DNA of 64,000 nt from Mobula hypostoma. Lineage: Eukaryota. Below are positions 16,340-57,332 of this stretch, piece by piece. A program made the position numbers and the translations under genes. Every line of letters starts with the position of its first letter. The first letter of the stretch is position 1. The notes below the pieces were generated by a model. The model was given only the letters and a program-made list of their open reading frames with translations. It searched no databases and was not told the origin of the DNA. The stretch lies in the NCBI RefSeq assembly GCF_963921235.1, contig NC_086108.1:15996001-16060000 (forward strand), given 5' to 3'.

Positions 16340-16757
16340 GAGGCACCTTTTGAGAAGGAATAGGAGGGAAGATGTGTGGTCGGAGTGACTGAGGTATGGA
16401 CATGCAGGTTTGCACTCCATTTTGGTTCTTGTTGGTAATCATGGGAATAGGCGGTGTGATTTTTTAAGGTCCCAGAGACAGTGGAACATGTGATCATGGT
16501 GTGCGGCAAATATTCATTAAAACGTGAAAAGCTATTTAGGCAATTATTGGGTAGAACCTGGATGCTTAGTTTGCAGAATATACTGGAACGTGAGACATGG
16601 GCGGTTAAGACGTGTAATGCCTCCTTTCATACCCCATTACAGTAGGTGGCGGTAAAGCACCTTCTTCTGTATCTTTTTTGACGGCGGTTGGCATCCAGCT
16701 TAATAGTGCATTACCGCCGCAAAGCACCTTCTTGAGACGCCATCGGCACAAAAGAGG
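16340..16757 (+). mobile_element. I-clade (Nimb-like) LINE 3' end with a second tail inserted in the opposite orientation
   Basis: Remnant LRYGHAGLHS and PETVEHVIMVCGKY zinc-knuckle-like C-terminus, with 3' motif CAGTAGGTGGCGGTAAAGCAC. The inverted tail at 16667-16720 is flanked by AAAGCACCTTCTT direct repeats. Confidence 0.65.
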
Positions 16758-17050
16758 ATGACGTGGCTGCTGTCAGAAGGCCATCAAGGAAGTCGGTGGG
16801 TGGGACTATGGTTCCCGCCACTAAATGGCTGCTGCACGGGCGGCGCGAATCTACTTACGGGTGGTTACGAGCAGCGGTCGAAGCTGGTAGCTGCTGGCGT
16901 GTGTCGGGAGGCGAACCAGGCACAAGGCCGGGGCAACTCGATCGCGCCATGAACGGTCACGTGGGCAACTTCCGGCCTTTGGTGACCTCGCCGTAAAATG
17001 GCGGCGGCGGGCTGCGCTGGAGCTGCTGCGATACGCCTAAGATGGAGCAG
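16750..17050. promoter_or_regulatory. CpG-island-like bidirectional housekeeping promoter
   Basis: The most CpG-dense non-repeat segment in the window. E-box CACGTG 16958-16963, ETS/GABP ACTTCCGG 16968-16975, pyrimidine run CCTTT 16976-16980 and YY1 AAAATGGCGGC 16995-17005. Splice donors point outward on both strands. Confidence 0.8.
16859..16950 (-). other. Candidate first exon of a divergent minus-strand transcript
   Basis: Consensus donor GTAAGT at 16858-16853 on the minus strand, inside the CpG island. An ATG at 16950 is open to the donor but hits a stop in the candidate next exon. The start coordinate is a guess. Confidence 0.55.
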
Positions 17051-17859
17051 GTTTTCCTTCTCAAAAGACGGCACACAATTGGCAGGGTTCCCACCTCTCG
17101 CTATCCTGGGGTTGTAGCTGCCATTCTGCCACCAACCGACTGCGAGTATAGAATTTAGAGGGAGTCGGATCTAGAGATGGTGGGATGCCCTCATTTCTCT
17201 CCTGGAGCCTTGTTGCCCCAGAACTTTTGAAATCCCCACTCCCCAAAAATGGGGAAAATTGAGAATGGGCAAAATCCATTGTGGGTGTTTTGGTCCAGCT
17301 TGGCATTTGATATGCTGAAAGATAGCTTAGTAATTTGAAATCGCATGTCCCAACGAATCGATGATTGGTTGCAAAACATGAAGAAAGTTTAGGGAGTTTG
17401 CTGATGTTTGCGATTTATGGTGCGCTGCAGTGATTACGAAGAGGCCGCCGTGGACCGCCGAAAGGTAAGAAGAGGGGACAGTAATTGAAACACGTTATTA
17501 TGCGTCGGGACCGATGAGTTTCCCCGACTGTGTAAAATCGGAGAACACATTCATGTTCACCGTGCACTGGCGCTGCTGTCTCACAGCTCCATCAAGCCAG
17601 GGTCAATCCTTCCTGCTAGTGCTAGCTATCTCGAGAATGTGTATGTATTCCCTGTGATTGTTGGGTATCCACTGGTGTCCTCCATCATTAAGGACCCCAT
17701 CACCCAGAGAAGGCTGTGCAGACTGAGCCTGTTTCTATGACTGACCGAGTGAGTAGTTAATTTATTTATTTATTTAGATGCCGTGCGGAATAGGCACTTT
17801 GAGCCACGCCGCCCAGCAACCCTCGTTTTAACTCCAGACTAGTCACAGGACGATTTACA

Positions 17860-18500
17860 ATGCAATGTTGGCATTTATTTCTAGAGGAATAGCGTATAGG
17901 AGCATGGATGTGATGTTGAGGCTCTATAAGGCGCTGGTAAGACCTCACTTGGAGTACTGTGGGCAGTTTTGATCTCCTTATTTAAGAAAGGATGTGCTGA
18001 TGTTGGAGAGGGTACAGAGAAGATTCACTAGAATGATTCCGGGAATGAGAGGGTTAACATGAGGAACGTTTGTCCGCTCTTGGACTGTATTCCTTGGAGT
18101 TTAGAAGAATGAGGGGGGACCTCATAGAAACATTTTGAAAGTTGAAAGGCATGGACAGAGTGGATGTGGTAAAGTTGTTTCCCATGATGGGGGAGTCTAG
18201 TACGAGAGGGGATGACTTAAGGATTGAAGGGCGCCCATTCAGAACAGAAATGCGAAGAAATATTTTTAGTCAGAGGGTGGTGAATCTATGGAATTTGTTG
18301 CCATGGGCAGCAGTGGAGGCTGTCATTGGGTGTATTTAAGGCAGAGATTGATAGGCAGCTGAGTGGTCAGGGCATCAAAGGTTATGGTGAGAAGGCGGAG
18401 GAGTGGGACTAAATGGGAGAATGGATCAGCTCATGATAAAATGGCGGAGCAGACTCGATGGGCCGAATGGCCGACTTCTGCTCCTTTGTCTTACAGTCTT
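17860..18500 (+). mobile_element. CR1 LINE 3' fragment
   Basis: LYKALVRPHLEYCGQF and FSQRVVNLWNLLP motifs, followed by a CR1 3' UTR. Confidence 0.88.
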
Positions 18501-19509
18501 ATGATCAATCCGTACGCATTTGGATTGTGTGAGGAAACCCACAAAGTCATGGGGAGAACGTACAAACTTACAGGAATGGTAGGAATTGAACCCCAGTCTC
18601 AGGTACTGAAAAGCTTTGTGTTCAATAGGCTTTAATATACTGATATATTCAATGCAAAGATAGATTTTGGGATGTTGAGCGATGCAGAGTTGATGTGAGA
18701 CTATACTGTTCAATCCTTGCAGCTTTTTGCTGTTTGATCCTACCTAATAGACCATAAGATATAGGAGCAGAATTAGGCCATCCTGTCTGCTCTGCCATTT
18801 CATCATTGCTGATACAATTTTACTCTCAACCCAAATCTTCTGCCTTCACCCCAAATTCCTTCATGCCCTGACCAGTCAAGAATCTATCAATCAATTATTG
18901 CTGTTTACTTTGCATACTTTATGCATATAGGCATTTAATTGCACCCAGGTGTAAGTTTAAATTTATTTAAATTTAAGGGTTGATATTGATTGAGTTGCAT
19001 GATAGTTTGAGGCTGAATATCCTGCTTTTTCCTCAATTCAATGCCCCTCCTTTTTATCGTTAAACATTCTAACTTTACCAAGAAGACCTTCAATCTGAAA
19101 TACTTTTTCTCTTTCCACAGTTACTTTCTGCTGTGTTTTCCAGAATTTTATTATACTGTACCAGATTTCTAGAATCTTCATTTTCATCTCAAAGAGTCAC
19201 AAGATGATTTCTCATCACAGTTGCTTTAAATGATGAGGATTTACACATTCTTTAGTGAAACTGATAATCCTGTATGTACTTTGCAGCAGGAGTGATTATA
19301 GGAGTTTTGGCTAATCTATTTTACCCACTCTGGAAGGCTGTGCCATTGCTGAGAAGTAAAACCTGTCTGAATATTTGAGAGTGGGGATCATTGCTTTGAA
19401 GTTACTCCTTATAAACTTGGCTGTAGGAACAGGAGCAGAACAGACCTGAATGAATTTCTGTTCCTCTGCCAGTGCAAGATGTCATCAGTTTATGGCATAT
19501 GGCATTAGA

Positions 19510-19970
19510 CATACAGTGCAGAATCAGGCTCTTTGGCATTCTGGGCCATGCAATTCAAGTTGTCCATCTGAGCTAGTCCTGTTTACCTGCATTTGGCAAT
19601 TATCCCTCAAATCTTTCCTAAATGTATACCTGTCCAAATGTCTTTGAAGTGTTGTTTTACCTTCCACAGCCACTTGCCCTAGCAGCTCATTCCCTCTACC
19701 TCCCACCTTCTGTTTGAAAAGTTTGCCCCTTGAGCTGCTGATAAACCTTGCCATTCTTGGCTTATATACCTCGTATAAGATCACCTCTCAGTCTACTTCG
19801 CTTCACAAAATAAAGTCTTAGCTTGGCCGGCATCTCAAATTGTTGCACTACCCATTCCTCAAGTCCTGACATCATCTTTGTAAATCTACACTCTTCCCAG
19901 TTTAATGGCATTGTTTCTGTAGCGTGGTGACCAAATGTCTTGTATGACTGCAACATCCCATTTTCCATAC
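19510..19970 (-). mobile_element. Old CR1 LINE 3' fragment
   Basis: SRLRGDLI motif in ORF 19762..19968, with a degenerate CR1 3' UTR. Confidence 0.7.
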
Positions 19971-20425
19971 TCAGGACTCAATTCTCTGGTGAGAGCCTGC
20001 ACGTCAAAAGTTGTCTTCATCACCCTCTCAGCCTGTGACTGTTTCATCAGAAATCTTTAATAACCTGCCTCAGGGTGTGTCACTGGCAGAGAAACCAGTT
20101 ACAAGATTTGGCAGTGGTCATTTAAAACTGAGGTGTAGGAGCTTCTTGCAGGTAATGAATCTCTGGAGTTTTTTATTTGGGAGGGCTATGGAGGCAATAT
20201 CATTGGGAATATTTAAAAAGCAATTGGAAACATTTTTTTTGAAAGGTCAGGGAAGTAAGTGCCATGGGGAACTAATGCAACAGAGATGAGGCTCAAGGCA
20301 GATTAGCCACGATCATATCTGCAGGCCATGCCTGCTGTCCAAGGGCACGTTTTTGCATTCTGTTTAGTTGTTTGGCTGATATGTTTGGGATAAGTATCAA
20401 AGCCAGCAATGTTATTATACAACAG

Positions 20426-20499
20426 CAGGATGCAGGTGATCATTTAGTATTTTTCTGATTTCAGCCAAGGGCTCAAAGTAAATGCTCTGGTGTATCCTG
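20426..20499 (+). pseudogene. SNORD105: SNORD105-like box C/D snoRNA copy with degenerate boxes
   Basis: Terminal stem CAGGATGCA/TGTATCCTG. Box C is mutated (GTGATCA 20436-20442) and box D is mutated (CTGG 20487-20490). Guide TCAAAGTAAATGCT has one G:U pair with 18S. Confidence 0.75.
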
Positions 20500-23193
20500 G
20501 AGCCCATTCTAACATGTGCTCACAATAACTAAGTGCAGTGGGCCTATATAAGCCGATGCATGCCTTTCTCCTTGTTCCTTTGCTCATTGAGGTTCCAAAT
20601 AGAATTCCTGAAGTTAATTTGGGATTATGTTCAAAATCAGTTTCAGATTACTTCATTAACAATATGTAAAAAGATTCCTTTCGAAGCCTAGAAATTTGTT
20701 TTGCTAAATATCTGGCCATAGTGATGCTCACGACCCACATTTGATTCATTTTCATAAAATACAGTTTGGGGCTCTTGGATTATCCCCTTTCTGTGTCTCC
20801 TGGATGCAAATCAATTTAATTTCTTTCTCATTTGACTAGATAGATTATAATAGACTTTGGGCTCAAAGAATGGGAAGTTGTTAAAAGAAGCACCACTACT
20901 TTAACTGTGGTGTTTTATACTGCTGGAGCTTCGCTTGACAGTCTCTTCAGAGTCTGCAGCACATTGGGCATCTCTGGTACAAGGAGGCAGAGAGCCATTT
21001 GCAATATCATTGAGCCAGCAGAGAAGGACTCAAGGTGGCTCTGGATGAAGCAAGTCCATGGGGATCTGCAGCACATGCTACCTGAGCACAAGTTGTGGCT
21101 TGATCAACCACGGCTGGGTCACCCAATGACCCCAGGTTACATCATTGATTATGTGTTCAGAGCATCTTGAGATGTATTTTTCGAAAGAAAATGCTCTGAT
21201 TAAATGCAGGCTGTCTCAGGACAATGAGTTAGCTCAATGAGCACCAGGTCTTTCTGCTCTGAATACTTCAAACTATTGAAATCATAGCTTGTGTAAGCTA
21301 TTGACTGTTTTACTATGGCACAAGCACTCAGTTACACCAGAATTCTTTTATGTCAGCATGGTGGGAACACATCCACCATGGTTACTTTTATAAGACCCAT
21401 CAACTTTGCACTGAGGGACTGTTAATTGGAAACTGCATTGTGAACAGCAGTTTTCTAAAATGAAAGCAATATAGTTTTTCCTGGTTAAGTGCTTGGGAGT
21501 AGTGTAAAGGGACAAACATTGCATCTCTTGCAGTTGGTTACAAAGAGGTCATGAGAATGAAATTTGGAAGGTAAATGCAACAGCACCCGGGGAAGTGATC
21601 CCTTCATATAGCAAAAGAAGAAAGAGGTATTTTGATGGTGGCATTACTTTGAAAATAAATGAAAATTTGAGCGATGATCCACTGGTAGTGGAGGCCGGTT
21701 AGTTGAAGACAGTGTCCTGGCCTCACTGTTAATAGTTTAATCCAAGGAGAGCCCAAGATCCCTTCTATTCTCCGCTGGAGTTTTAGCCACTATCCCTCCA
21801 CCACTACTGTCTTCTGACTGTTACTGTACATTGAACGGTGTTTGCTTTAACTCCACTCACTTTCTCTAAATGCTATGGAAGCCTTTTGGGTTCAGGAATG
21901 CCTATTATTGTTGGGCTTATGGAACATTATTTCCTTGTCCCATACACTGTCTTTGTCCAGTCAATTAATAACAGTGGAAGCGCCTTCCCGTTCTTTGCTT
22001 TGAGCTTGCATCTATATATAATTCTGGTTTCATCATGTGCTCCATCTTGAACTCTTGTTTATCTTATTTCCGTTATGGACAAGTGAGCAGCATTGACCAT
22101 GTACTCTCCACTTCCCATCGCTGTACTCATTTTATGCTTCCAGTTTTTATGCCTTTGTCTTGTTAGCTCTTATAATGTCACTTTTGTCATTTTTACTCTC
22201 TTAAAGTAGAAAGGCCCATACTGCTTGGAGTCTATTCCGACTTGCTTCGCTGTAATATGTTCCCTTATTTTTTTGTACCCATTGATTCCGTCCTGATTCT
22301 CCTGGCACTTGCCAAGGATAAATTTACAGTGGGCCAATTAATCTAACAAACTATTTTGGGATGTGGCAATAAACCAGAGCACCTGGGAGAATACATACCA
22401 TAGATGGAATGAGAGGTCAGGTTTAAGCCTGGGTTACTGTAAGTGTGAGTCAGCAGCTCTGATATGCATCAGGTTTGGCATTTTTCTTCAACTCAGGTTT
22501 CCCCTCTTTAGTTGCCAGCACTCCTGACTGCTCCACTCTCACTCCAGCACCATATTGTGATGCTCGTTTCCCATCTACATCTGGTGACTGGTCTGTTGTT
22601 TATGCACTTGTCCATTTCTTGGCTTCTGACCATACCTTTAAATTAATATTTAATTTACCTGACTTCCAACCCACCATAGAACTTACCTTTTTTGCTTTTC
22701 CCCCCATTTTTTAAATTCTGCAGCATTGTCTTTTAATCTTTGATTTTTGTTTTTCAGATCTCATTAAAGGATTAAGATTTTTGCTCCAACCAGTTGTTAT
22801 AAATGTTGAGTTTTTGCAGGATTGCGTCTTATTAAGGAAGAAACATACTGTTCTGCACAATGGAAATCAGTGTAGAGCTCTGACTAATTTATTTAGTCCT
22901 TGAAATGAGGAACAAATGCCAATTTTTAATAAAACTGCTGAGCCTGGGTTGCTCAGTTTACTCACAAACCAGGAGGAGGCATAAAACAGATTTGTGTGAT
23001 TTTTTTTAAGTCTAAATATTGTGGAAGTTTTGCAGTTAGCTGTAAATTGCAAGTCAGCCTTCTGCATTAGGTAATGATTTCTGTTGTGGTTAGTAGAAGG
23101 ACATCTTCACAAGACAGACTGAATGCATTTGTCATCAGTACTTTATCATGAGCTCTTAATCTTGTGGGGTGGCCCTCTTGTGAAGAGGGGAAA

Positions 23194-23261
23194 GGACACA
23201 AATGATGATTTTTGTTTGCAGATTCTACCGTGAGGCTCAAAGTAAACGCTCTGATGTGTCC
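23194..23261 (+). ncRNA. SNORD105: Box C/D snoRNA, SNORD105 (U105) family, guide for 18S rRNA Um799-equivalent
   Basis: Perfect 7-bp terminal stem GGACACA/TGTGTCC. Box C ATGATGA 23202-23208 and box D CTGA 23251-23254. The 14-nt guide TCAAAGTAAACGCT is complementary to conserved 18S AGCGUUUACUUUGA. Confidence 0.93.
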
Positions 23262-23928
23262 AACAGATCAACGTGTGTTTTGTTTTTGATAAAACAAATG
23301 GGGCTTTATACTATCGGGTGCAACTTGTTTTCTGTGCACAATAATTATTCATTGAATATTTTCTGAACTTCTTAGATTTTTTATTATATTGCTCTTGGAG
23401 TTATAGCCAAATTATCAGCTTGCATATTTCTGTTGTCACAACTGGGGTCATTTGTGATGGACATAGAAACATCAGTGAAGCATAGTTTTTCTTTATATTC
23501 TATTACTCTGGGGGGCAAGCTGTGCTTAAAAAGTTTATTTTCCACATAATGGTTAGTTTATTCTATATATGCAAAGTTCAATGAATGTTTAAAAATAACT
23601 GTCCAAACTCAGGTGTGACTGGTTTTTAATTATTTATTGTTATTAAGGCCTGTCGTGTGAAATGAAGTCTATCAGTATATGTTGATTATGGGCTCTTTGT
23701 ATGTTCCAGACACTCATGAATTCTGAAGTTTGGACAAGGTTTTTGCATTTGCTTGGAGGGATGGCTTGTAGAAGACCATGGAAGTGACTTCAAAAACAGT
23801 AGGTTTTTTTTTGTAGTGAGAGCCTTCAGGATACTGAGACTGTATTTCGCGCAATTTGTTTTTAAAAGAATATTAGGTGTGAGGAAGAATCACTACGATT
23901 AGGTTGCACATCTCTGCATACTTTACTT

Positions 23929-25415
23929 AGAAACATAGAAACATAGAAAATAGGTGCAGGAGTAGGCCATTCGGCCCTTCGAGCCTGCACCGCCATTTAT
24001 TATGATCATGGCTGATCATCCAACTCAGAACCCAGCCTTCCCTCCATACCCCCTGACCCCTGTAGCCACAAGGGCCATATCTAACTTCCTTTTAAACATA
24101 GCTAATGAACTGGCCTCAACAGTTTGCTGTGGCAGAGAATTCCACAGATTCACCACTCTCTGTGTGAAGAAGTTTTTCCTAACCTCGGTCCTAAAAGGCT
24201 TCCCCTCTATCCTCAAACTGTGACCCCTCGTTCTAGACCTCCCCAACATCGGGAACAATCTTCCCGCATCTAGCCTGTCCAATCCCTTTAGGATCTTATA
24301 CGTTTCAATCAGATCCCCCCTCAATCTTCTAAATTCCAACGAGTACAAGCCCAGTTCATCCAGTCTTTCTTCATATGAAAGACCTGCCATCCCAGGAATC
24401 AATCTGGTGAACCTTCTTTGTACTCCCTCTATGGCAAAGATGTCTTTCCTCAGATTAGGGGACCAAAACTGCACACAATACTCCAGGTGTGGTCTCACCA
24501 AGGCCTTGTACAACTGCAGTAGTACCTCCCTGCTCCTGTACTCGAATCCTCTCGCTATAAATGCCAGCATACCGTTCGCCTTTTTCACCGCCTGCTGTAC
24601 CTGCATGCCCACTTTCAATGACTGGTGTATAATGACACCCAGGTCTCGTTGCACCTCCCCTTTTCCTAATCGGCCACCATTCAGATAATAATCTGTTTTC
24701 CTATTTTTGCCACCAAAGTGGATAACTTCACATTTATCCACATTAAATTGCATCTGCCATGAGTTTGCCCACTCACCCAACCTATCCAAGTCACCCTGCA
24801 TCCTCTTAGCATCCTCCTCACTGCTAACACTGCCACCCAGCTTTGTGTCATCCGCAAACTTGGAGATGCTGCATTTAATTCCCTCATCCAAGTCATTAAT
24901 ATATATTGTAAACAACTGGGGTCCCAGCACTGAGCCTTGCGGTACCCCACTAGTCACCGCCTGCCATTCTGAAAAGGTCCCGTTTATTCCCACTCTTTGC
25001 TTCCTGTCTGCTAACCAATTCTCCACCCACACCAATACCTTACCCCCAATACCGTGTGCTTTAAGTTTGCACACTAATCTCCTATGTGGGACCTTGTCAA
25101 AAGCCTTTTGAAAATCCAAATATACCACATCCACTGGTTCTCCCCTATCCACTCTACTAGTTACATCCTCAAAAAATTCTATGAGATTCGTCAGACATGA
25201 TTTTCCTTTCACAAATCCATGCTGACTTTGTCCGATCATTTCACCGCTTTCCAAATGTGCTGTTATCACATCCTTGATAACTGACTCCAGCAGTTTCCCC
25301 ACCACTGACGTTAGGCTAACCGGCCTATAATTCCCCGGTTTCTCTCTCCCTCCTTTTTTAAAAAGTGGGGTTACATTAGCCACCCTCCAATCCTCAGGAA
25401 CTAGTCCAGAATCTA
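23929..25415 (-). mobile_element. Young 5'-truncated CR1 LINE with an uninterrupted RT reading frame
   Basis: ORF 24025..25383 (452 aa) has [32 protein letters not shown] and FADD with no stops. Ends in a (TTTCTATG)n tail. Confidence 0.96.
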
Positions 25416-25974
25416 ATCTAATCTACTTCTCATGGGTCAGCTGGAAATCTTGTTGCTGATTTTGAGAAGCCCTTTTAACTGATGCCAGGGGTTACAGAGC
25501 CATAACTGCTAAATGGAACTAGGTTGAGATGTAGGGATTTTTATAGTAACTTGCTGTATATTTATTTACATTGTACTGCAAAACAATGTATTTCATGACA
25601 TGTCAGTGATAATAAACCTAATAATCATTCCGATTAATAGAGTGTCGGTAAAAAAACTTTTTGACATTTCCACCCTGAAAGAAGGACTGATTATCTACCC
25701 TATCTATACCTCAATTTTTTTTATACTTCTGTCTCAATCATAAGGATAAGTAGCACGGAAACAGGCCCTTTAGCCCAATCCATCCATGTTGACTGAGTTG
25801 TCTGCCTTTGGCTCATAATCCCCTAAATCTTCCCTATCCATGTACTGATTTTTAGATTGTATGCACCACTACTAGTTTTAGCAGCTCATTCCAATTATCC
25901 TCCACCCTCAGAGTGAAAAATGTGCCCCTCAGGCCCCTGTAGTATCTCTCTCTTTTGGGGCCCCTGTGATTTTC

Positions 25975-27325
25975 ATAATTGCCTTGGATGACGATGTGGG
26001 AGGGTGTGTTAGTAATTCTGCAGATGACATGAACGTTGTTGTGGATAGTGTGGAGAGTCGTCGTAGGTTGCAGCAGGATAGCAACAAGATTCAGAGTTGG
26101 CCTGAGAAGTGACAGATGGGGTTCAACCCAGTAAAAAGTGAAGTGATCCATTTTGGAAGGTTGAGTTTTAAGGCAGAATACAGGGTTAATGTCAAGATTC
26201 CTGGCAGTATAGAGGAACAGAAGGATCTTGGGGTCCACATCCCTCGGTTGATGTGAAGGTGATAGGGTTGTTAACAAGGCGTATGATGTGTTGGTTTTCA
26301 TTAGTCGGGGGCTTGCGTTCCAGTCCCATGAGATAATTTTGCTGCTGTATAGCTGGTTAAACTGCACTTGGAATATTGCTCAGTTCTGGTCGTCTCATTA
26401 TACAAAGGATGTGGAAGTTTTAGAGAGGGTGCAGAGGAGATTTTACCAGGATGCTGTCTGAACCTGTCTTAGGAATAAAAGAGGTTGAGAGAGCTAGGGC
26501 TCTTCTCTTTTGGAGTGGAAGGATCAGAAGTGTACAAAATGATAAAAAGGCATAGATTGGAGTGGATAGACAGACATTTTCCCCTAGTCAGAAATGACTA
26601 ATACATGGGGACATAACTTGAAGGTGATTGCAGGAAAGTAGAGGAGGGATGTCAGGTGAAATGGTGGTCGAGGCAAATACAGTGGTTTGGCAGTTGTCCG
26701 GTATCGGACCGCTAAGCACTCCAGCGTGTGGTGAAAACTGCCCAGTGGATTATCCGCACCCAATTGCAAACCATTGAGAACATCTACCATAAATGCTGCC
26801 TGGGCAGGGTGAAAAGCATTATCAAGGACGCATCTCACCCTAACCATGGACTTTTTACTCTCCTCCCATCCGGTAGGTGCTACAGGAGCCTCCGCTCCCG
26901 CACCGGCAGGCACAAGAAGAGATTCTTCCCTGAGGCTGTGACACTGCTGAACCTCACATCACAGCACTAAGCAGTATTGCATCCATACTGTACCGTCTCA
27001 TTACTTCTATATTTGTGTGCTGTAGCACTTACTTTTTATTCGCAGTTATTTTGTAAATAACACTATTCTTTGCATTTCCGGTCAGATGCTAACTGCATTT
27101 CATTGGCTTTGTATCTGTACTCGGCACAATGACAATAAAGTTGAATCGAATGGAATCTAATCTAATCTACATTAGGGGCATATAAGAAACTTAGACACGT
27201 GGATGATAGGAAAATGGGGGGCCTTGTAGGAGGGAAGGGTTAGATTGATCTTGGAGTAAGTTAAAAGGTTGGCACAACATTGTGGACCAAAGGCCTGTAC
27301 TTGCTGTAATGTCCTATGTTCTATA
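25975..27325 (+). mobile_element. Decayed CR1 with a nested Rex1/Babar 3' fragment (about 26658-27170)
   Basis: CR1 RT remnants on both sides. ORF 26728..26970 has KDASHPNHGLFTLLPSGRCYRS and the insert ends in an (AATCT)n tail. Confidence 0.8.
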
Positions 27326-27582
27326 GCTTTGCATTTAAAGTGCACCAATAAATCTGGAAGCAAAATATTTTTCTAGAAAGTAAAGCACTACTAGATACAT
27401 AAGAGGCCTTTTTTTTAAAAAAAAAAGCTCTTAGATAGGCACATGGGTGATGGAAAAATGGCTGTGACAAATAGATTGATAGAGTAGGTTAAAGAGTCGG
27501 CACGACCTGGTGAGCTAGGGCCGTGTACTGTGCTGTACTGTTCCAAAATCTGTGTACGCCTTGCTGTAAATTTGAGCGGAGT

Positions 27583-27664
27583 GATGCAAATGATGAGTAT
27601 TGGGAAATGTGATGTCAATTGTCTTCAAGGCAGGTGATCTTCAAAGTAAACACTCTGATGCATC
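27583..27664 (+). ncRNA. SNORD105: Box C/D snoRNA, SNORD105 family (variant guide)
   Basis: Stem GATGCA/TGCATC. Box C ATGATGA 27590-27596 and box D CTGA 27655-27658. Guide TTCAAAGTAAACACT has one mismatch to 18S, 3 nt upstream of box D. Confidence 0.88.
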
Positions 27665-28296
27665 CTGTTTATGGTTTGGAATCTGATTACATGGCGGTGA
27701 TTTTGGCATATCATGTTTGTCTTGGCTCTGATAGATATGCATGCAGTATATGATAAATTGCTACTATTGTCACTAATAATTTTTTTTTGTTGACAGGTCA
27801 AAGGCTTTAAACCTCTCGCCTTTTCAATATGTACGTGAGTGCTTAATTTAGTGTTATTTTGTTTTAAAATGGCTTTCCTCCATGGTGGAGTTTTGGCATA
27901 CCAAGTTTTTAAGACAGGTGTTTGTTTAATGACCAAAAAGGGAGAGTTATTTCTTGTAGCATAAGCAGAGAGTCTGGGAGGAGATTGATATCTTTTGCTG
28001 TGATGCAAAAGAATTCAGTTTATTTTCTGAGGCACCAACGTTATTGTTCTAGACTGGCCCATTCAACACATGGATGGTTGAGGTTGAGCTGAAACAAGTG
28101 CCATTAATTCCAGGTCACTCTGGTATGGGTAATACGTGCAGACTTTGACATTCCCCATTATCTCACAATGGGACAGAAAGCGTGTACTGGTCTATAGGTA
28201 GTGATTGTGAGAGGCTTGCTATGAATCCTGATTGATTTAACTCCCATTCAATTCTCCAATACCTGCAAACTTGAAAGTGAGCTTGATCAGCCATTT

Positions 28297-29570
28297 CATA
28301 GAAACATAGAAAACCTACAACCCAATACAGGCCCTTCGGCCCAAGATGCTGTGCGGAGCATGTAATTATTTTAGGAATTACCTAGGGTTACCCATAGCTC
28401 TATTTTCCTAAGCTCCATGTACCTATCCATGAGTCTCTTAAAAGACTATCGTATCCACCTCCACCACCATCACCGGCAGTCCATTCTGTGTGTGTGTGTG
28501 TAAAAAAGAAAAAGCAAACAAATAACAACAGCTTAACCCTGACATCTCCTCTGTACCTACTTCCAAGCACCTAAAAACTGTGCCCTTTCATGCTAGCCAT
28601 TTCAGCCCTGGGAAAAAGCCTCTGACTATCCACATGATCAATGCCTCTCATCATCTTGTACACCTCTATCAGATCACCTCTCATCCTCTGTTGCTCCAAG
28701 AAAAAGAGGCCGAGTTCACTCAACCTATTCCCATAAGGCATGCTCCTCAATCCAGGCAACATCCTTGTAAACCTCCTCTGCGCCCTTTCTATGGTTTGCA
28801 CATCCTTCCTGTAGTGAGGTGGCCAGAAATAAGCACAATACTCCAAGTGGGGTCTGACCAGGGTCCTATAAAGCTGTAATGTTACCTCTCAGCTCTTAAA
28901 CTCAATTCCACGATTGATGAAGGCCAACGTACTCCGTATGCCTTCTTAAGCACACAGTCAACCTGCGCAGCAGCCGAGTGTCCTATGGACTCGGACCCAA
29001 AGATCCCTCTGATCCTCCACACTGCCAAGAGTCTTACCATTAATATTATATTCTTCCATCATATTTGACCTACCAATATGAACCACCTCACACTTTCTGG
29101 GTTGAACTCCCACCTGCCATTTCTCAGCATGGATTTGCATCTTATTGATGTCCCGCTGTAACCTCTTGACATCCCTCCACTTCTTCATCCAGGTCATTAA
29201 TAAAAATCACAAAGAGAAGGGGTCCCAGAACAGATCCCTGAGGCACGCCACTGGTCACCTGTCTACAACCACTCATTGCCTTCTGTGGGCAAGCCAATTC
29301 TGGATCCACAAAGCAAGGTCCCCTTGGATCCCATGCCTCCTTACTTTCTCAATAATCCTTGCATGGGGTATCTTATCAAATGCCTTGCTGAAATCCATAT
29401 ACACCACATCTTCTGCTCTACCTTCATCAATGTGTTTAGTCACATCCTGAAAAAAAAAATTCAATCAGGCTCGTAAGGCATGACCTGCCTTTGACAAAGC
29501 CATGCTGACTATTTCTAATCATATTATGCCTCTCCGAATGTTCATAAATCCTGCCTCTCAGGATCTTCTA
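28297..29570 (-). mobile_element. CR1 LINE fragment
   Basis: YMDFSKAFDKIPH and RGDLIEVYKMMRG motifs. Same family as 50882-54640. Confidence 0.9.
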
Positions 29571-30052
29571 CAAAACCTTAAAGCTCAAAACTCAATTAAG
29601 CAACAGTTGATCCTGCAGCTATCTGTTCAGTGGATCTACTTATCAGTGGTGGTGTTTGTATGTGATGTCTGTCCAGGAGAGCTTTCTCTCGCCCTCAGAA
29701 GTCAGGCAGATGTCACAGACAGGTTTTGGTTGCAGTGGATGACCATGGCATCTTTTGTGCTTTGTCACACCCTTATTTCTGCAGTGTTACAGTTTTGTGT
29801 TCCTGGCAGTTGGATCTCACTGTACACCTCAGGCTGGCTGTAATACATGAGTGTTTTAGTTTTCTAAAACTACAGGTTGATGTCATGAAAAATGATTTTG
29901 CAGTCCTACAATAAAATTTTGTTAATTTTAACCATTGGCAACGATTTTCATGAGGTATTGTGTTGAGACTTATCACCAGAAGGAAGTGTATATTAGCTTG
30001 CTGGCTATTATGTTTGAGGTGATTACCATGGGCAGAATTGCTAGTAATGAAT

Positions 30053-30128
30053 AACAGGATGCAAGTGATGACATACTTTTTTGCTGATTTTGGTGAGGCT
30101 CAAAGTAAACGCTCTGATGCATTCTGTT
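30053..30128 (+). ncRNA. SNORD105: Box C/D snoRNA, SNORD105 family
   Basis: 11-bp stem AACAGGATGCA/TGCATTCTGTT with one G:U. Box C GTGATGA 30065-30071, D' CTGA 30084-30087 and box D CTGA 30114-30117. Perfect guide TCAAAGTAAACGCT. Confidence 0.93.
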
Positions 30129-30719
30129 TTATTGTGTGTACATGCCCTTAATATCTGTGAAGATCTAAACACTAATTTTCTGATGAATATCATCACTAAT
30201 CTTGGGCAGCTCTTTTCATGGTGATTTAACCATGCAGTTTGTTTGTACCCCCGAGTTCACTGTGCATATAGTGAGACTAATGCATAGGTAAGCTATTTCT
30301 TTCAGACAGAGGCTGTGATGTGAGAAGGGGCTGGATCAATGGGCTTTGTCAGTGGATCCTTCAGTGCGGAGGTTTCCAGACCTATAGTCACAAGGAACAA
30401 GAAAAATGCAGTTTCCATACAGCAGCGATATTCAGGACGAAATCCAGTTACTGGATAATTTGATCAGTTGAAGGTGGCGATAGATAAATATTTGAATTGA
30501 GGGTATGACAAACTGTCACAGGAGAGGAATGGAAGTCAGCTTGAATCAGCGCTTATCTTTATGAATAGGCAGGCTTAAAGCTACTCTTATTTTCTTATGT
30601 TCAGAGACAACTGAAGACCTGATTGCTGATTTTTTTTTCAGCAGTGCGGTCTAATTGATGGTGGAGGCCTCTTGCAGGTCCTGAAGTGCGAGATTTAATG
30701 AAAGAGCTTTTGTGGGATC

Positions 30720-33500
30720 TGGTAAGTTTCTTCTGTCTTTTGTCATCTGTTAATGTATACTTAGAACACTGAGAATGATTCAGTTATGTTCTTTGTGTGA
30801 GATGTGGGAATTCTGAGTGACCTCTGGTCCCCTGGATAACCACAGATGCACTGTCAGGAGATGGAAGGGAAGTGGGCAGCCAGTACAGAGTACTCCTCTG
30901 GCCACTCCATAAATAACAAGTATACCATTCTGGATATCTGTGAGGGAGACGGTCTCTGACACTGAGCCAGGTGCTATGGCTCAGAATGGAAGTGGGGGAG
31001 GTGGGGGGGTGGTTTAGAAGAGGACGGCAGTAGTAAAAGGGGATTCCATTGTTTGAGGAGTAGGCGTGAGATTGTGTCACCCAGATAATAAGTTGCCTGC
31101 CGGGTGCCAGGGTAAGGGATGTCTTGGATCGAGCCCACGACATTCTAAAGGGGGAGAGGGAACAGCTAGAAGTCTTGCTATATATTGGCACGAATGTCAT
31201 GGGTAGGAAAGGTGAGATATTCTTGAAGAGAGATTGTGGAGAGCTAGGTGGAAAGCTGAAAAGCAGGATCTCTAGGGTAGTAATATCATTAACAGTGAGG
31301 GTAAGAATATGATGATTTGGCAGATGAATGCGTGACTGTAGGGGGCAGGGTTTCAAGCTGTGTTGGAGAGGGTTTTAAACTAATTTGGCCTAGGAGATGG
31401 TAACTGGAGAATAGGGCTGGGTTTACAAGCAGAGGCAGTGGTAGTGAACATGTCAGGAAGGACAGGCAGTTAATAGGGCAAAATTTCAGTCAGTGGGATG
31501 AGCTGCAGTTTAAAAGGGGAACAAAATCGAAAGGAGTGATGGATACATGATTGAAAGTGTTGTGTTTCAATGCACACAATATCCAGAATAGTGTAGATGA
31601 TCTTGTACAGTTAAAGATTGATAAGTTTGATGTTGTGCACATCATTAAGTTGTGGCTGAAAGCAGATCACAGTTGGGAGCTTAACCTCCAAGGATATCAA
31701 AAGGACAGGCAGGTAGGCAGAGGGGGTGGCGTGGCTCTGTTGGTAAAATACGAAATCAAATCATTAGAAGGTGATGTAGGTTTGGAAGATGTAGAATCCT
31801 TGTGGGTAGAGCCGAGAAACTGCAAGGGTAAAAAGACCCTGGTGGGAGTTGTATACATGTCTTCAAACAGTAGCCAGGATGTGGGCTACAAATTACAACA
31901 GGAGTTAGAAAAGGCATGTCAAAAAGATAATGTTATGATAGTCATTTGGGGGGGCGGGGTGAGATTCAGTATGCAGGTAGATTGGGGAAAATCGGGTTGG
32001 TGTTGGATCCCAAGAGGGAGAATTTGTAGAATACCTATGAGATGGCTTTTTAGAACAGCTTGCAGTTGAGACCACTTGGGGATCAGCTATTCTGAAGTGC
32101 ATGTTATGTAATAAACCAAATTTGATTAAAGGAAAGGAACCCTTAGGAGGCAGTGATCGTAATGATAGAATTCACCCTGCAATTTGGGAGGGATGTAAAA
32201 GTCAGATGTATCAATATTACAGTGGAGTAAAGGAAATTACAGGGGCAGGAGAGAGAGAGAGAGAGGCCAAAGTTGATTAGAAGAGGCCACTTGCAGGGAT
32301 GACAGCAGAGCAGCAGTGGCTGGAGTTTCTGAGAGCATTTTGGAAGGCACAGTATAGATACATCCCAAACAAGTAGTGGTATTCTAAAGGCAGGATGAAG
32401 TTACTGTGGCTGACAAGGGAAGTCAAAGCCAACACAAAAGCAAAAGAGGAGGCCTAAAATAGAGCAAAAATTACTCAGAAGTTAGAGGTTTGGGAATCTA
32501 AAGCCAGCAGAAGGCAACCAAATAAAAGCCATGGGTAAGAAAATGAAATGTGAAGATAAGCTAGCTAATAATATCAAAGAAAATGCTAACATATTTTCCA
32601 GATATATAAAGAGTAAAAGGGCTGAGAATAAATATTGGACTACTGGAAAATGAAACTGGAGAGGTAGAAATTGTAGACAAACTAAAAGAATTTTGCATCA
32701 GTCTTCACTATGGATGACACTAGCAGATGCCAGAAGTTCAAGAATATCAGGGCAGAAGTGAGTGCAGTTATTACAAGGAAGAAGGTGCTTGGGAAACTGA
32801 AAATTCTGAATATTGATAAGTCAGCTGAACCAAATGGACTACGCCCCGGAGTTCTGAAACAGGTAGTTGCAGAGATTGTGGAGGCATTAACAATGACCTT
32901 TCAAGAATTGATTCTGGCATAGTTCCATAGAACTGGAAAATTTAAAATTTCACTCCACTCTTCAAGAATTGAGGGAGGCAGAAGAAAAGAAATTAAAGGC
33001 CAGTTAGCCCGACTTCAGTGGTTTGGAGTCTAGTGTTAAGGATGTGATTTCAGGGTACTTGGAGTCACATGATAAAACAGGCCAAGTCAGCATGGTTTCC
33101 TTAAGGGAAAATCTTCACTGATAAATCTGTTGGAATTTGAGGAAATAAGAAGAATGATGGATCTCATTGAAACCTATAGAATTTTGAAAGGCCGAGATAG
33201 TGGATGTGGAGAGATGTTTCCTGCGGTGAGGGAGTCTAGAATCAGGGCTCACCCTCAATATAGAAGGATGTCCATTTAGATGAGGAATTTCTAGCCAGAG
33301 GCTATGATTGTGTGAAATTCATTGCCACAGGTGGCTGTGGAGGCCAAGTCACTGGGTATATTTAAAGAGGTTGATAGGTTCTTGATTAGCCTGGGCATGA
33401 AAGGTTAGAGGGAGTTGGCAGGAGAATGGGGTTGAGGGGGAAATGGTGGAGCAGAGTTGATGGGCTGAATGGTCTGATTCTACTACGTCTTGTGGTCTTG
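30720..33500 (+). mobile_element. Long decayed CR1 LINE with ORF1 (esterase-like), APE and RT remnants
   Basis: ORF1-like CLPGARVRDVLDRAHDILKGE...IGTN. APE-like LCFNAHNI and RGGGVALLVK. RT linker and 3' end with large internal deletions. Confidence 0.85.
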
Positions 33501-36500
33501 TGTTGGGTCACATTGAAGGTAGAATCCACATTTTCATTCACCTGTGGTCTGGGCAGTTTATGAATGTTTATTAATTCCAATATGCTACATTTTTTATAAA
33601 CAACACCATCCAGGATTTGTGGGCAGAAATATCTAAGTTACAAAACTTATGTGCGTAAAGTTTTGGCACAGCTTTTGAAAATTTAATCTATATTGTCTCA
33701 TTTGTATCTGTATCTGAAGAGTTAAAAAGTTTGGCGGGGGGGGGAGAATCCCACAATTCTCCACTCCAGCTCCATCAGATGCACCCATCCAGCATGAGGT
33801 AGTTTGCTTACTTTAAATATAGTTTGTTTTTCCCATACTTTCTCCAAATCAACCTTACTGTTCCAAACATTATTTTTCCTCATCTTATTTCCCTATCACT
33901 TCTCCCTTTAGTCTTACTATATTCAGTCTGGCTCTTACTGGAGTTATTCACATGACTTCCTACGAGTTCTGACAAAGGCTTTGACCGACAACATATTATC
34001 TGTGTTTCTTTGCAATAGTTGTTGCCTGATGTGCCAAATGCTTCCTGAATTTTGGTCTTTACTTTGTACATCCTATCAATTTCTTTTTCCCTAGGTAGAA
34101 ATATACATTGCCTGCAAGTGAAGTGTCTTCTCAGGAATTGCTGTCCTGTCGAGATGTCAAGCAACGATGGTTCGATTTTACCCTGACTCAGAATGATACT
34201 ATTTAAGTTATCCTTCCTGCTATTTTAAATAAATAAACAATCTACTGTGGATCCTCTTTACCCCCCCTCATTTATCAATTTTAACATTATCTGTTGAACA
34301 CTATGCTGATCTTTGTAAGTGGTATTTATTTTTTGCTGCTGAATAAGTAGTTTTCTGTAAAATGAAATTGTCTTGGACCAGTGTAATCTAAGACACCAGA
34401 ATCGGCTGTTGAATGTTGGAGGGTGATGACAAATCACTGAGGCACTAAGGCAGTGGCACTCATTGCCATCGATGGGCTCCAAACTTCATGATTTGCTTTT
34501 ATTGCCTATCAATATCTACTTTGCGTTGTTGACAGCCCTGCTGAAACCCATTACCTTCCTTCTGTGGATCTGAGTTTTATGATGAGCAGTAATCAAATTA
34601 GGAACATCTTTCTGGTGTGTACTAAAGTGCAAGCTCAAAATAAGATTTTGTTCACTCAGCTCCTTGTGCTGCCTTGGCTTTCATTACAGCAGCTATAGTA
34701 TATGGAGAACTGACAAGTATGGGTTCCCTTGGTTGCCCTTGATTGAATCAAAGCCCATGAAGAGGTCTGAGCTCTGAAGGGAATCTTGTAGAACTAGCAA
34801 GCAAAGCTTGCGCCACCAGGAAGCCTGTAATGTCGCCAAATTAATGGTTATTCATTTCTTAAAGAAAATAAAATCTGCATTTGCTCAATATGACATGAGT
34901 GACTCCAAATCTGCACTACTGTAGTTATCTCTTGTCTATCCTTCGAGTTGCCTGAGCAAGCCAAGTGGTTGCATCAAAGTCACTGAGTAAAAGTAAAAAG
35001 CAGCTAAACTATCTAGCATTTGATTTGGGGATCTTATTTAGGCAAGGTAAAGACACTGCTGGCTCAGTCAATTTTGCTGTTTCACAAACTGCTAGTACCT
35101 AAACAGAGTCCCATTATTGTGTAGAGCAATGGCCTAACAGTTATGCACACAGAATCGTTCCTGCGAAGCAGTGTGCCAGATTCCATCACTAATCTTGGGC
35201 AGGTCTTGTCACATTAGAGATGATGTTGCAGAGGCACATGTGGGAGAAAAAGGATCTGATTCTAAACCCTATGACTTTTAGTTGTACCAAGCAATGCTAG
35301 TTCCATTTTACCCTGGCTTGGGTGATCCTGTTGAAGTTGCAGTTTATACTTTGGGTCTTCTCTGTCCTCTCTTAATTAAGTATTTAAAAATTAATCTGAT
35401 AACATGTCACATCACTGTTTCCCAGCTCATAACATTATTTATCATTGTTAAATGACACTTGCAGCTAGTATTTGGGAATTTTAATGTCTATCACCACTGG
35501 CTATGTTCTGAAGATAATTGTCAGGATCTTTGGCAGCTAAGTAAATGAATAATATAATAGTATAATATCCCTAATTCATTTTCACCAATCTACATGTAGG
35601 TGAATCATCATTATCAATGTCAAGACACAGCCCTTGTTGAAACTGCTCTCACTTTATCTGGGACATCATTGTATTAGGATGAACCCAAATCTTGCAGGTC
35701 AAAAGTGCATTAATGATCTGAAGTGCATAGATTTTGGCCTTTCTCAAAAAATAATCGAATGGTTTAGTATTGGAGGGACTTATCGATGCATGAAGAAATA
35801 GGATTTACCGTGATAATCAAATTGCCCCTTCGCCAATCACCCACAAAGCCATCAATTCTGTCATCCAAATCAATGATACATAAGAAGCAGTCCCAACATT
35901 TACCCCTGCAGAACATCACTAATCACTGGTATCCACCCAGAAAATCCCTTTAATCCTATGTATTACTTATACCAGTCAGCCAATTTTCTAGCAATGCTGG
36001 TATCTTTCCTGTAATACTATGGGATGAATTGGTGACAATTATCATGAGTTGTGATGGTGGTGATGAGTCACCATGTAAAAGTGAGATCGATCATGTGATT
36101 GAGTGATACTGCAGCAACAACCTTGTGCTCAGTGTCAACAAAACAAAGAATCATCCCTGACTTCATAAGGGGAACTCAGGAACAGGTATTTTCCTACAAC
36201 CAACAGTTCTTGAAATGACCAGCATAACCCTAACTCAGCAACTCTATGACCACATTTTGCACTTGTTATTGTTTCTTTGCACTAATATTTTGATTTGCAA
36301 ACTTTTTCTCTTCATGGTCTTGTACAATTTACTCTAAGGTTTGTATGTTAACTGAATTGGCTGTAGGTGTGTCATTCTACTGCAAACAAGTTTTGCACTG
36401 CAATTGTACCTCACCTTATTTATGCATATGACAATGAGCTCCTCTTTACTTGAGAATCATGGAAAATTAACTCAAGTTCAGCATCAACATTAAACTTGGC

Positions 36501-36938
36501 AAAATCTAACGTATGATCATTCAGTACAGTGGTTCCCAACCTTCTTTGGCTCACTGTCCACTCGGGTCCCAGACCACAACCCCAGCACCTCTCCCCCCCG
36601 CTCCCCCCATTCTGGCCATTACATAAAAACTTCCAAGAATTTTGATTTACGATGCACAGTGAAAGAAAATAGGAACTGCAAATTCAATGCAGTGGCAAAT
36701 AATTGCAAAAATATTCAAGTCTATGTAAAGCTACAAATAAATTATTTATTTAATTACAGTAAATTAAATTTTAGAAACATAGAAAACCTACAGCACAATA
36801 CAGGCTCTTCAGCACACAATGCTGTGCTGAACGCCTACTTACTTTAGAAATTACCTCGGGTTAGCCATAGCTCTATGTACCATATTTTTCTGAACAATTT
36901 TAGAGCGTATGTTAGTAGTCCAACCTTTCAATGAGATG

Positions 36939-37122
36939 CAAACAACAGGAATTCTGCAGATGCTGGAAATTCAAGCAACATACATCAAAGTTGCTGGTGA
37001 ACGCAGCAGGCCAAGCAGCATCTATAGGAAGAGGCGCAGTCGACGTTTCAGGCCGAGATGAAGGGTCTTCCTATAGATGCTGCTTGGCCTGCTGCGTTCA
37101 CCAGCAACTTTGATGTATGTTT
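36939..37122. mobile_element. Fold-back Penelope terminal-repeat insertion with 14-bp TSD
   Basis: CTTTCAATGAGATG at 36925-36938 and 37123-37136. Perfect inverted arms at 36977-37032 and 37066-37121. Confidence 0.9.
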
Positions 37123-39126
37123 CTTTCAATGAGATGGATGGGTTTGGTGCAGTGATACCAGCTTCTCAACATCAGGCTGAATGTCATTCAGAAGAAGTCT
37201 CAGATCCCCACATTCAGTCATTTCCAAACTGCTTTGTTGCTTTGAAAGAAGTTGGGCTATTGTACTGGAACTGCTCCACTAAATATGATGTTAGAAGGGC
37301 AATAAAGACCACCATGACTTTTTTCCCACACTGCAGGATAGCGTTCAGAGATTTCTTTCTGCAATCAATTGTCTTCATATGATTTTGTTGAACCTTGGCT
37401 TCAGTTCAAAATCATTTTGTGGTAAAATCATTTCCTCCTCCATCCTTCTTGTTAATTTCTCATTATAAGTGTTCAGGAATGTATTTATTTTACCCAATCT
37501 GGAACTTGGATCAAGAGAAGATCCTGAAATATCTCTGTCATGACTTTATGCACCTCATCCAGATGTGCACAGTGTAGTTGAAGATCTCAGAGATCAGAGA
37601 GGCTCTGAGATTGGAAAAGGTCACGACGGCCAATATTGCAGTTAAATAGAGTTAACTTGGACAGAAATGTGGAGACAACCGATTTGACTAAGGTAAGATT
37701 CACATAATTTCCTTGTAATTGAAGATTGATTTCATTAAACTGCAAATAATTCTAGCAAATAAGCAATGTCATGCCTAAAATTCTTGAGTTGTTACTGAAT
37801 GAAACATTTAAGTCTTCAAAGAATTTTATCAGTTTCAAAAAGGACATAAAAGCATCTTTGCAGTTTTCTTTTGAGAGCCATCTGACTTTTGTGTACAACA
37901 TCTAGTGTTCAAATTGTTCCTCATTCTCAATACACAGCTCTCAAAACAGTTGAGAATTGAAAGCAAGTATATGATTTTAATTACCACTGTGGTAACAGTA
38001 TTTAATGATTTATGCAGGTGATCACTTAGATTTTTTTTTGCAACAAGATGTCTGTGAAACAGCTTTTTTCAAGTACTAACTCTACATGTGTCGTGTTATT
38101 AATGGTGTCCTATCTGTTACACAAGCAAGAATGTTGGTGAGTGGAATGTATTTATCTCTAAAAGTTCATTCAGTCCAAAATATTGACTCCCCCTTTGTAT
38201 CCACTTCTAGTTCTCTTGCAAATAACAAATCTTGAACCATGCTTTCATCCTTTATGAATCAAACATAACCACAAAGCAAAGATTTGTTGCCTGATAAAGT
38301 TGACTCATCCAGCTGCAGAACAAATTCGGTTATCCTAAATATGTTGCACAATGTGTCTTCCACATTCTCAAACATTTCATCTATTTGTCTTTTAGACAGT
38401 GTTGATGCCAAGCAGAATTGCTTTAGTTACTTGATCATGTGACTTTTGCAACACTGTACTCAGAACCTCCCTTACTGCTGTCAGATTCAGTTCTTCTCCA
38501 ATTGTATGGGGCTTTCCAGATTTAGCAATAAACAATGAAATGTATGAAGCACACAAACAATCACTGTTTTGTTGTGAAATGCTGGCAAACATGTTATGAA
38601 GTGTTTTCCTTTTCTGAAGGTGACTGAAAATAAGACAAGTTCTTGTTTGCTTCATCAGAGTGTAATCTCTTCAAATGTTCAGGGAGACTGGATGGTTTCA
38701 CTGTCTCATTTGAAAAACAAAACCCTTTCACACACCAAACACATTGCTGCTGTTGGTTGCTTGGTGCTGGTATAAATCCAATTTTCAGATACTTCACACC
38801 GTACTATTGAGACTTCTTTTTTGTTTGGCCCACTTCTGCCATTTTCATTATGGATTAATGACCGGAATTAATCACCTATTGTTTAAGTCCAACCTCAAGT
38901 GCTACAATCAATAAAGGGGAAAGTTATGATGTTATCATAGCTCAGGCAAAACCTGATTTCTGCCTGAAGGTACATATAGTGGGGCAGTGATATGTCGGTT
39001 GGGTCTTAGATCTAAAGAAATGTGGTCAAGACCATTCAAAAGGGCAGATTCTGAACTTTACCCCATTGAACAGCAAACCCTAATTCACAGGAATTGCATC
39101 ACTGCATGATTAGCGTATGGGAACCG

Positions 39127-56187: not shown

Positions 56188-57332
56188 GTATATTCCTATA
56201 TGAATACTTACCATCCCATGTCTGAATGTTGCATGCAGGTGTGAACTGGTTCATTTACATAAGATTTTCAGATGAAATTAGATAATGTGCACCAATCGTT
56301 AGTGAACATCCTCATTTTTGAGTTTATGAAATGTGACGAAAGTACACATAGACTAAGATGTTGACTGTCCTGTCATATCACCAGTGGGATCAACAGTTGA
56401 TCTGCCACCTGTCTTCAGGAGAGAGATAAGTAAGACAATGGAGCAGCATTTGGAAATGTTAATGAAGAGACGAGAGAGATTAACAGAAGGAGACACCGGT
56501 CTGGGTATTGTCAAGACTGGTTTGCTTTGAACCTGAACTGTTTGAAGTGATGGACAGGCGATACCCCAACAGGGGGATAAAAAGGGACGGGTTCGCTAAG
56601 GCAAGAGACACCACACGAGACACCACTCACGACACCACCAGGTATCGAGACCCTGGAAGCAGTGCGCCCCCACAAGTCGGTGGGAGTTTTTGAGCGCTGG
56701 TCACGGGACCAGCCATAGACACACAGGGTGGAAAGATTCGGTCGGCGGGAACCTGGTGTGTGTGTCCACCCTTGCCTGGGTGCCGGGTTCACCGCAGAGG
56801 AACGATCGTATCTGAAAACGGAGGGGTCACAGTCGGTGACCTCAGAAGACATTACAAAGGGCTCGCCCGAAAGCTAACTGCGAGAAATATCAAAGGTCTG
56901 TTGAATCCGATTTTGAATATCAGCATTCGCTCTCTCTCTCTCTCTCTCTTCAACGGCACAACAACGATTGCTGCCAACTGAACTAAACTGAACTCTGTCA
57001 CTTGTGATTGAACATTTTACTCCTAGACTGCGATAGAGCTTGATTGATCCTATTATCCTAGTTCTGTGTACATGTGTGTTTATTCAGTGCTAACCTGTTG
57101 CATTTATATCCTTACTATTAGAGTACTGTGTTGCTTATTTCTTTAATAAAACTTCCTTAGTTCCAGTAATCCAGACTCCAACTGAGTGGTCCATTTCTGC
57201 TGGTTTGGCAACCCAGCTACGGGGTACGTAACATAAGTGGGGTTCTCGTCCGCGATTTTGAACGCTAAATTTGGGATGGGGTAAATTGATTGGGTTAAAA
57301 TTCCCGAAAGAAAGAAAAGGCAAACAGCAGAA

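Follow-up and report, generated by a model that had tools for sequence, protein, structure and literature searches.

Box C/D snoRNAs (small nucleolar RNAs) in the SNORD105/SNORD105B group (Rfam RF00584 and RF01173 snoU105B, clan CL00075) include members located in PPAN: human SNORD105 sits in intron 3 of that gene (PMC8649375), and supplement file 4 of PMC7668251 places the zebrafish copy within an intron of ppan. A table in the supplement of PMC6984369 assigns X. tropicalis SNORD105 to 18S-U762, the equivalent of human U799, and gives its coordinates without a host name. Here we describe a locus of the ray Mobula hypostoma, in a 64,000-nucleotide stretch of contig NC_086108.1 (positions 15,996,001 to 16,060,000 of the forward strand; the window, numbered from its first letter), at which an SNHG-type non-coding host gene carries four locally duplicated SNORD105-type guide units, U1 to U4, in its introns. 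The units share with the known family the box C/D layout, a guide beside box D that addresses the same site of 18S, an intronic position and the best Rfam match. They differ from it in host, as they lie in a non-coding gene on a different contig from PPAN; in score, which falls below the cut-offs of the Rfam clan; and in copy number, since the ray has four copies, whereas the supplement of PMC6984369 gives two for human and a single one for X. tropicalis.

The word formed by the guide and box D occurs four times in the window at up to three mismatches, against 0.02 occurrences expected, and none of 100 shuffles reached four, bearing out the first-pass annotation, which had read plus-strand units starting at 20426, 23194, 27583 and 30053. 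When both strands of the 64 kb were scanned for exact boxes C and D combined with a stem of five or more Watson–Crick pairs, three candidates were returned in all: U2, U3 and U4. A terminal stem of 6–11 bp is present in 4/4 units, as that annotation had stated; the consensus boxes that it had also ascribed to each unit are found in U2, U3 and U4 and are missing from U1. The best copy is U4 (30053–30128), with box C at 30065–30071, a D′ box CTGA, a perfect 14-bp guide at 30100–30113, box D at 30114–30117 and an 11-bp stem. U2 (23194–23261) is likewise canonical, with box C at 23202–23208, a perfect 14-bp guide at 23237–23250, box D at 23251–23254 and a 7-bp stem. U3 (27583–27664) has intact boxes (C at 27590–27596, D at 27655–27658), a longer inner part and a guide at 27640–27654. 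U1 (20426–20500) appears to be a decaying copy, in which the stem is intact, box C reads GTGATCA (20436–20442), the guide lies at 20473–20486 and box D reads CTGG (20487–20490). Over 16–40 kb, searched in E-value mode, RF01173 matches all four units, at 44.5 bits for U4 (E-value 5.9e-7), 26.9 for U2, 26.1 for U3 and 22.0 for U1 (E-value 1.4). Because every unit misses the gathering score (49 bits for RF01173 and 45 bits for RF00584), we consider the units best called SNORD105-type, below the threshold for Rfam members; the Rfam check proposed in the first-pass annotation thus yielded a snoU105B match to each unit, all of them under the cut-off.

The guide pairs with positions 758–771 of 18S ribosomal RNA (rRNA), and the D+5 base is U762 in 6/6 of the ray's own 18S copies examined. 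By base pairing, then, the units point at U762, the equivalent of human Um799, in agreement with the family and target named in the first-pass annotation. The supplement of PMC7668251 (file 4) lists this 18S site as methylated in zebrafish, with SNORD105 as its guide. As had been expected, the species' own 18S holds the complementary site, which has 10 matches in the genome, 9 of them exact and 8 within a ribosomal DNA (rDNA) array at the start of the window's contig. That array (C50:8,663-147,396, about 16 Mb from the snoRNA host on the same contig) consists of units mostly 19–21 kb apart with the 8 copies of the 18S site; elsewhere, an 18S-like copy at C78:2,461,590, possibly an rDNA pseudogene, differs by a G-to-A change within the site that the guide targets. 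U2 and U4 pair with the target at 14/14 positions by Watson–Crick pairs. U1 has one G:U pair at guide position −4, adjacent to the predicted methylated base. In U3 the A variant of the guide, earlier taken as a tolerated form, creates a true A·C mismatch at −3, and none of the 10 genome matches is an 18S variant that would compensate for it. Candidate second (D′) guides were also considered and rejected: their best pairings to 18S and to about 4.3 kb of 28S are 10–11 nt long with at most two G:U pairs and are unlike between the copies, as chance would produce.

To characterize the host, contigs from four public runs of two studies were compared with positions 16500–36400 of the window. Such contigs show neither strand, level, start sites nor mature small RNAs, and the plus strand of the host is taken from its splice signals. 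One splice joint with GT..AG borders connects 23798 to 27797 in runs X1 and X2 (2/4 runs, one study), and a second, also GT..AG, connects 30721 to 34095 (read as 30720/1 to 34094/5) in 4/4 runs of both studies. The host first exon spans 17050–17464, with an approximate 5′ end: contigs X2-9, X3-17 and X4-25 stop matching at 17462–17464, and a donor GTAAG follows at 17465. A small internal exon at 23772–23798 is defined at its end by the first joint and has candidate acceptors that place its start at 23710 or 23772. A 34-nt internal exon follows at 27797–27830, its acceptor given by the same joint and its probable donor at 27831 by a 34-letter side and by intronic contigs from 27801. The 80-nt internal exon at 30642–30721 and the terminal exon at 34095–35197 (3′ end approximate; contigs X1-8, X2-15, X3-23 and X4-25) are connected by the second joint, and the terminal exon contains AATAAA-type words at 34228 and 34867. 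Contig X4-25 joins 16903–17462 to 34094–35040 with only 249 nt between, skipping U1 and U2. Because the first 606 nt of the terminal exon are single-copy in the genome, a processed pseudogene or retrocopy is ruled out as the source of the joints. The longest ATG-initiated open reading frame (ORF) in four exon models is 39 amino acids, a length that is also the maximum within the terminal exon.

Two of the units therefore have introns of their own: U3 lies inside the directly seen intron 23799–27796, and U4 lies between exons 27797–27830 and 30642–30721. U1 and U2 are located between exon 1 and 23798. The first-pass annotation had described the units as dispersed among debris of long interspersed nuclear elements (LINEs). 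The repeats are there, since about 48% (a rough figure) of 17465–34094 matches other DNA compared and a LINE reverse transcriptase frame occupies 24025–25422; the units themselves are not loose among them and lie inside the LINE-filled introns of one spliced gene. The host gene resembles SNHG/GAS5-type hosts in its probable CpG-island promoter, short exons, absence of a long ORF and intronic snoRNAs, although no orthologue of it could be named. SNHG transcripts as a class start with a 5′ terminal oligopyrimidine (5′TOP) motif and are turned over by nonsense-mediated decay; a pyrimidine run is present at 17052–17062, near the 5′ end of the host. The U4 intron (30194–30220) and the end of the terminal exon (35182–35208) each contain one copy of a short stretch that begins CATCACTAATCTTGGGCAG.

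The four copies are in graded states of preservation, with U2 and U4 canonical and intact and U1 and U3 damaged. U1 and U4 share 127 nt at 72% identity, including about 50 nt of 5′ flank, which argues that intron segments were duplicated locally and that U1 decayed afterwards; the local amplification proposed in the first-pass annotation is supported. The inner sequences, described there as diverged, have drifted and are still alignable (19/28 positions for U1 and U4, 20/26 for U2 and U4). That annotation also saw selection on the whole set, and a reading in which all four copies are active, selected guides draws on the terminal stems (27/28 stem cells paired), on at least 12 contiguous target pairs in each copy and on the finding that some weak guides prove functional once tested (PMC6984369, Discussion). 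We consider this unlikely. Both boxes of U1 are mutated, and for this reason we judge it a likely pseudogene; the altered positions are those that build the kink-turn. Mutated boxes are a mark of snoRNA pseudogenes in the account of PMC12309372. U3 is predicted to be a weak guide because its mismatch falls at position 3, and zebrafish guides, as described in PMC7668251, need nine pairs at positions 2–10 and rarely tolerate mismatches. Contig X2-12 is identical to the assembly across U3, which excludes an error of assembly as the source of the variant; contig X1-3 covers U2, also without any difference from the assembly.

PPAN itself lies on another contig, C81, and is identified there by the match of one exon to human Suppressor of SWI4 1 homolog. 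Further exons in C81:6,358,157-6,399,365, an interval without N, were recognized by eye, and we take them to be PPAN-like. No copy of the snoRNA was found there: 70 kb spanning PPAN, free of N, contains no Rfam snoRNA match to E-value 5, and 0 of 36 genome-wide one-mismatch matches to the guide and box D fall on C81. Genome-wide pattern counts alone are at chance level, with 3 exact matches against 2 in a reversed control and 36 one-mismatch matches against 44, and the weight therefore rests on the fact that boxed, stemmed matches occur only in the cluster. Among the 30 of 36 one-mismatch matches that were fetched, the 27 outside the cluster include none with a box C and a stem, and against a model made from the four units none of them scores above 19.7 bits. 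The cluster is all that family and DNA searches of the genome bring up, U4 being the sole genome-wide snoU105B match, and the unit-built model, which the four units match by construction, finds no further copies in the host or its flanks over 355 kb. No other source of the guide seems to exist in the genome, and this locus apparently takes the place that PPAN introns have in human and zebrafish. The host gene and the guide-free PPAN, both missed in the first-pass annotation, are the informative parts of the locus.

Clustered paralogous guides in a non-coding host have a described parallel in zebrafish FP101887, a poorly annotated long non-coding RNA (lncRNA) that hosts ten SNORDs, nine of them of the SNORD52/202 family, in its introns, some with degenerate guides (PMC7668251). 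FP101887 differs in family and target, and the ray host contains four single-guide copies in much longer, LINE-filled introns. The U762 guide itself exists outside the SNORD105 locus in another vertebrate, as the supplement of PMC6984369 gives 3/4 SNORD52 copies of X. tropicalis a second target at 18S-U762. These two observations invite the reading that the ray units are SNORD52-family RNAs with a U762 guide and that their host is the SNORD48/52 host gene, with the zebrafish SNORD52 host, an lncRNA with nine related copies (PMC7668251), as its model. In X. tropicalis those SNORD52 copies act as double guides with a further target in 28S, whereas the ray units have no 28S element. The element sought was the antisense motif for the U3904-type site of 28S, the D′ guide of SNORD52; it is absent in 4/4 units, though its site is present in the ray's own 28S, and because it is missing from all four we reject a SNORD52 origin as very improbable. 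In addition, Rfam searches of 16–40 kb to E-value 10 return snoU105B and no SNORD52 or SNORD48 match, and the neighbouring genes are RNase L-like and RGS-domain genes, in contrast to the location of SNORD48/52 on human chr6 (PMC6984369, supplement). A genome-wide search with the SNORD52 model RF00276 was blank, which is uninformative as to absence.

That snoRNAs move from host to host, and that their copy numbers are higher outside placental mammals, has been described, with host switching and extra copies known from frogs and fish (PMC6984369, Discussion; PMC3349704); three supplements of PMC3349704 contain no SNORD105 entry. The relocation seen here is real yet familiar in kind, and no new mechanism is needed to account for it. 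Its direction is a separate matter. The ray is an outgroup to human and zebrafish, so that either direction fits, and the copies are widely diverged (mean column identity 69%), as they might be if the non-coding host beside the RNase L-like gene were the old jawed-vertebrate home of the guide and PPAN a later acquisition of bony vertebrates, instead of the guide having left PPAN in the ray lineage. We regard this possibility as doubtful, although deserving of attention: the second organism represented in the public contigs is only 1–2% different from this genome, and non-coding hosts turn over readily (PMC6984369, Discussion). Among open-access literature, we found no paper on cartilaginous-fish snoRNAs or on this locus, and nothing relevant on elephant shark or RNase L synteny.

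Taking relocation to a non-coding host as our reading, we consider it very probable that the host is spliced, that its snoRNAs are trimmed from the introns and assembled with the fibrillarin core, and that 18S U762 is methylated as a result. Transcription of the plus strand would start at the CpG island around 17 kb, and splicing would yield a short transcript without a useful ORF, while the SNORD105-type box C/D RNAs would be trimmed from the host introns and bind the core of 15.5K, NOP56, NOP58 and fibrillarin. The box-D guide would then pair with 18S 758–771 and direct 2′-O-methylation of U762 (human Um799), with U2 and U4 doing the work, U3 probably contributing weakly and U1 decaying. The data show the units, the pairing of guide and target, two splice joints, the lack of a long ORF and the lack of a copy in PPAN; from established C/D biology we infer the processing, the assembly of the ribonucleoprotein, the methylation and this ranking of the copies.

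Several observations weigh against this account. The identity of the runs as RNA is a guess, and their data are contigs, in which a mature snoRNA is not visible. About 134 nt of exon between exon 1 and 27797 are unplaced, and splice-site scoring for them gave no clear answer; because of them U1 and U2 possibly share one intron, and were they open they would raise the upper bound on the host ORF to about 90 amino acids. The distance from the snoRNA to the 3′ splice site is 132 nt for U3 and 513 nt for U4, both further than the typical distance of about 70–90 nt. At gathering level, Rfam has 0 matches in the whole window, with no unit reaching the cut-off, and a genome-wide profile search with RF00584 (SNORD105) was blank, a blank that is not to be taken as absence. 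Folding z-scores of the units are only −0.04 to −1.93. Compensating stems, which the first-pass annotation had read as a sign of selection, amount to two-sided changes at 2/7 pairs, each of them in U2; 60/500 shuffles match this covariation, which is therefore not significant; stem covariation is compatible with selection and no proof of it. One and the same word underlies the 6 unfetched one-mismatch guide matches, which have the look of a repeat, and the genome-wide guide search would miss a guide that lies within a different snoRNA and differs at two or more positions.

Read at their most severe, such points would make the cluster dead debris and leave U762 unmethylated or guided by an undetected RNA, a reading to which the scores below the Rfam cut-off, the damage to 2/4 copies and the sighting of the small RNAs as DNA and contigs only all lend something. 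Two perfect copies inside introns of a spliced transcript, the lack of any other candidate in the genome-wide searches and the zebrafish listing of a methylated, SNORD105-guided site speak against it, and we hold it to be extremely improbable.

The presumed start of the host lies in a CpG island at 16501–17500 (no strand assigned), a probable bidirectional promoter with CpG observed/expected ratios of 1.01 and 0.74. Contigs of both studies cover it from 16854/16903 to 17462/17464 and continue on both sides with sequence from outside 16500–36400. The island probably drives the host on the plus strand and an RNase L-like gene on the minus strand. A putative non-coding first exon of the latter occupies 16859–17000 (minus strand, 5′ end unmapped) and ends at a minus-strand donor GTAAG (16858–16854). 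The match of contig X2-9 breaks off at 16854, beyond which the contig has another 1866 nt, and because two contigs extend 1.6–1.9 kb past the donor at 16858, the evidence suggests that the RNase L-like gene starts at the same CpG island as the host, in head-to-head orientation, with a presumed splice link to its body. That gene lies at C50:15,957,077-15,971,434 (minus strand), and has one large ankyrin-plus-kinase exon; its ATG exon is about 41 kb upstream of the island. Its protein combines ankyrin repeats with a kinase-like domain, and human RNase L ranks first among its structure matches (E-value 1.3e-91). Identity over the kinase region is 97% with a Mobula protein named 2-5A-dependent ribonuclease-like, and 82% with a Hemitrygon protein; a search with this region gave 14 matches, one unnamed and the 12 other named ones from rays, skates and sharks. 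About 130 kb downstream of the host, a divergent RGS-domain exon lies at C50:16,146,855-16,147,040 (minus strand); human RNASEL also has RGS neighbours.

RNase L is an antiviral nuclease that cuts rRNA, and the shared island raises a hypothetical co-regulation: if the only U762 guide shares the RNase L promoter in rays, guide dose and mark might follow antiviral signalling. We hold this to be very unlikely; if true, a mark taken as housekeeping would track antiviral signalling. Direct shielding of U762 from RNase L is also unlikely, because under its UN^N cleavage rule RNase L would not use the 2′-OH of U762.

Other features of the window and of the contigs examined lie apart from the cluster. 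A plus-strand open frame of 761 amino acids at 57285–59570 has SCAN, zinc-knuckle and weak integrase zinc-binding matches and represents a Gypsy-type gag region, which the second CpG-rich stretch of the window accompanies. A repeat at 36935–37127 holds a long perfect hairpin (37003–37095), and a similar hairpin occurs inside PPAN (L045:1591-1675); a mir-3926-type match at 37003–37095, below the cut-off, was set aside as a repeat-derived hairpin unrelated to the cluster. Beside a Brix-domain exon, C12 (L004:1-2013) contains a long tandem repeat in which all six frames are open for about 500 codons.

For the ray, the host represents a previously unrecognized non-coding gene whose snoRNAs fall below standard Rfam thresholds. 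The graded copies, two intact, one with a guide mismatch and one with broken boxes, constitute a natural test of the C/D rules. For the family, the locus is a clear-cut example of a snoRNA host switch, in a lineage whose snoRNAs had no study that we could find, and it shows that the pairing of SNORD105 with PPAN in human and zebrafish is not universal in jawed vertebrates.

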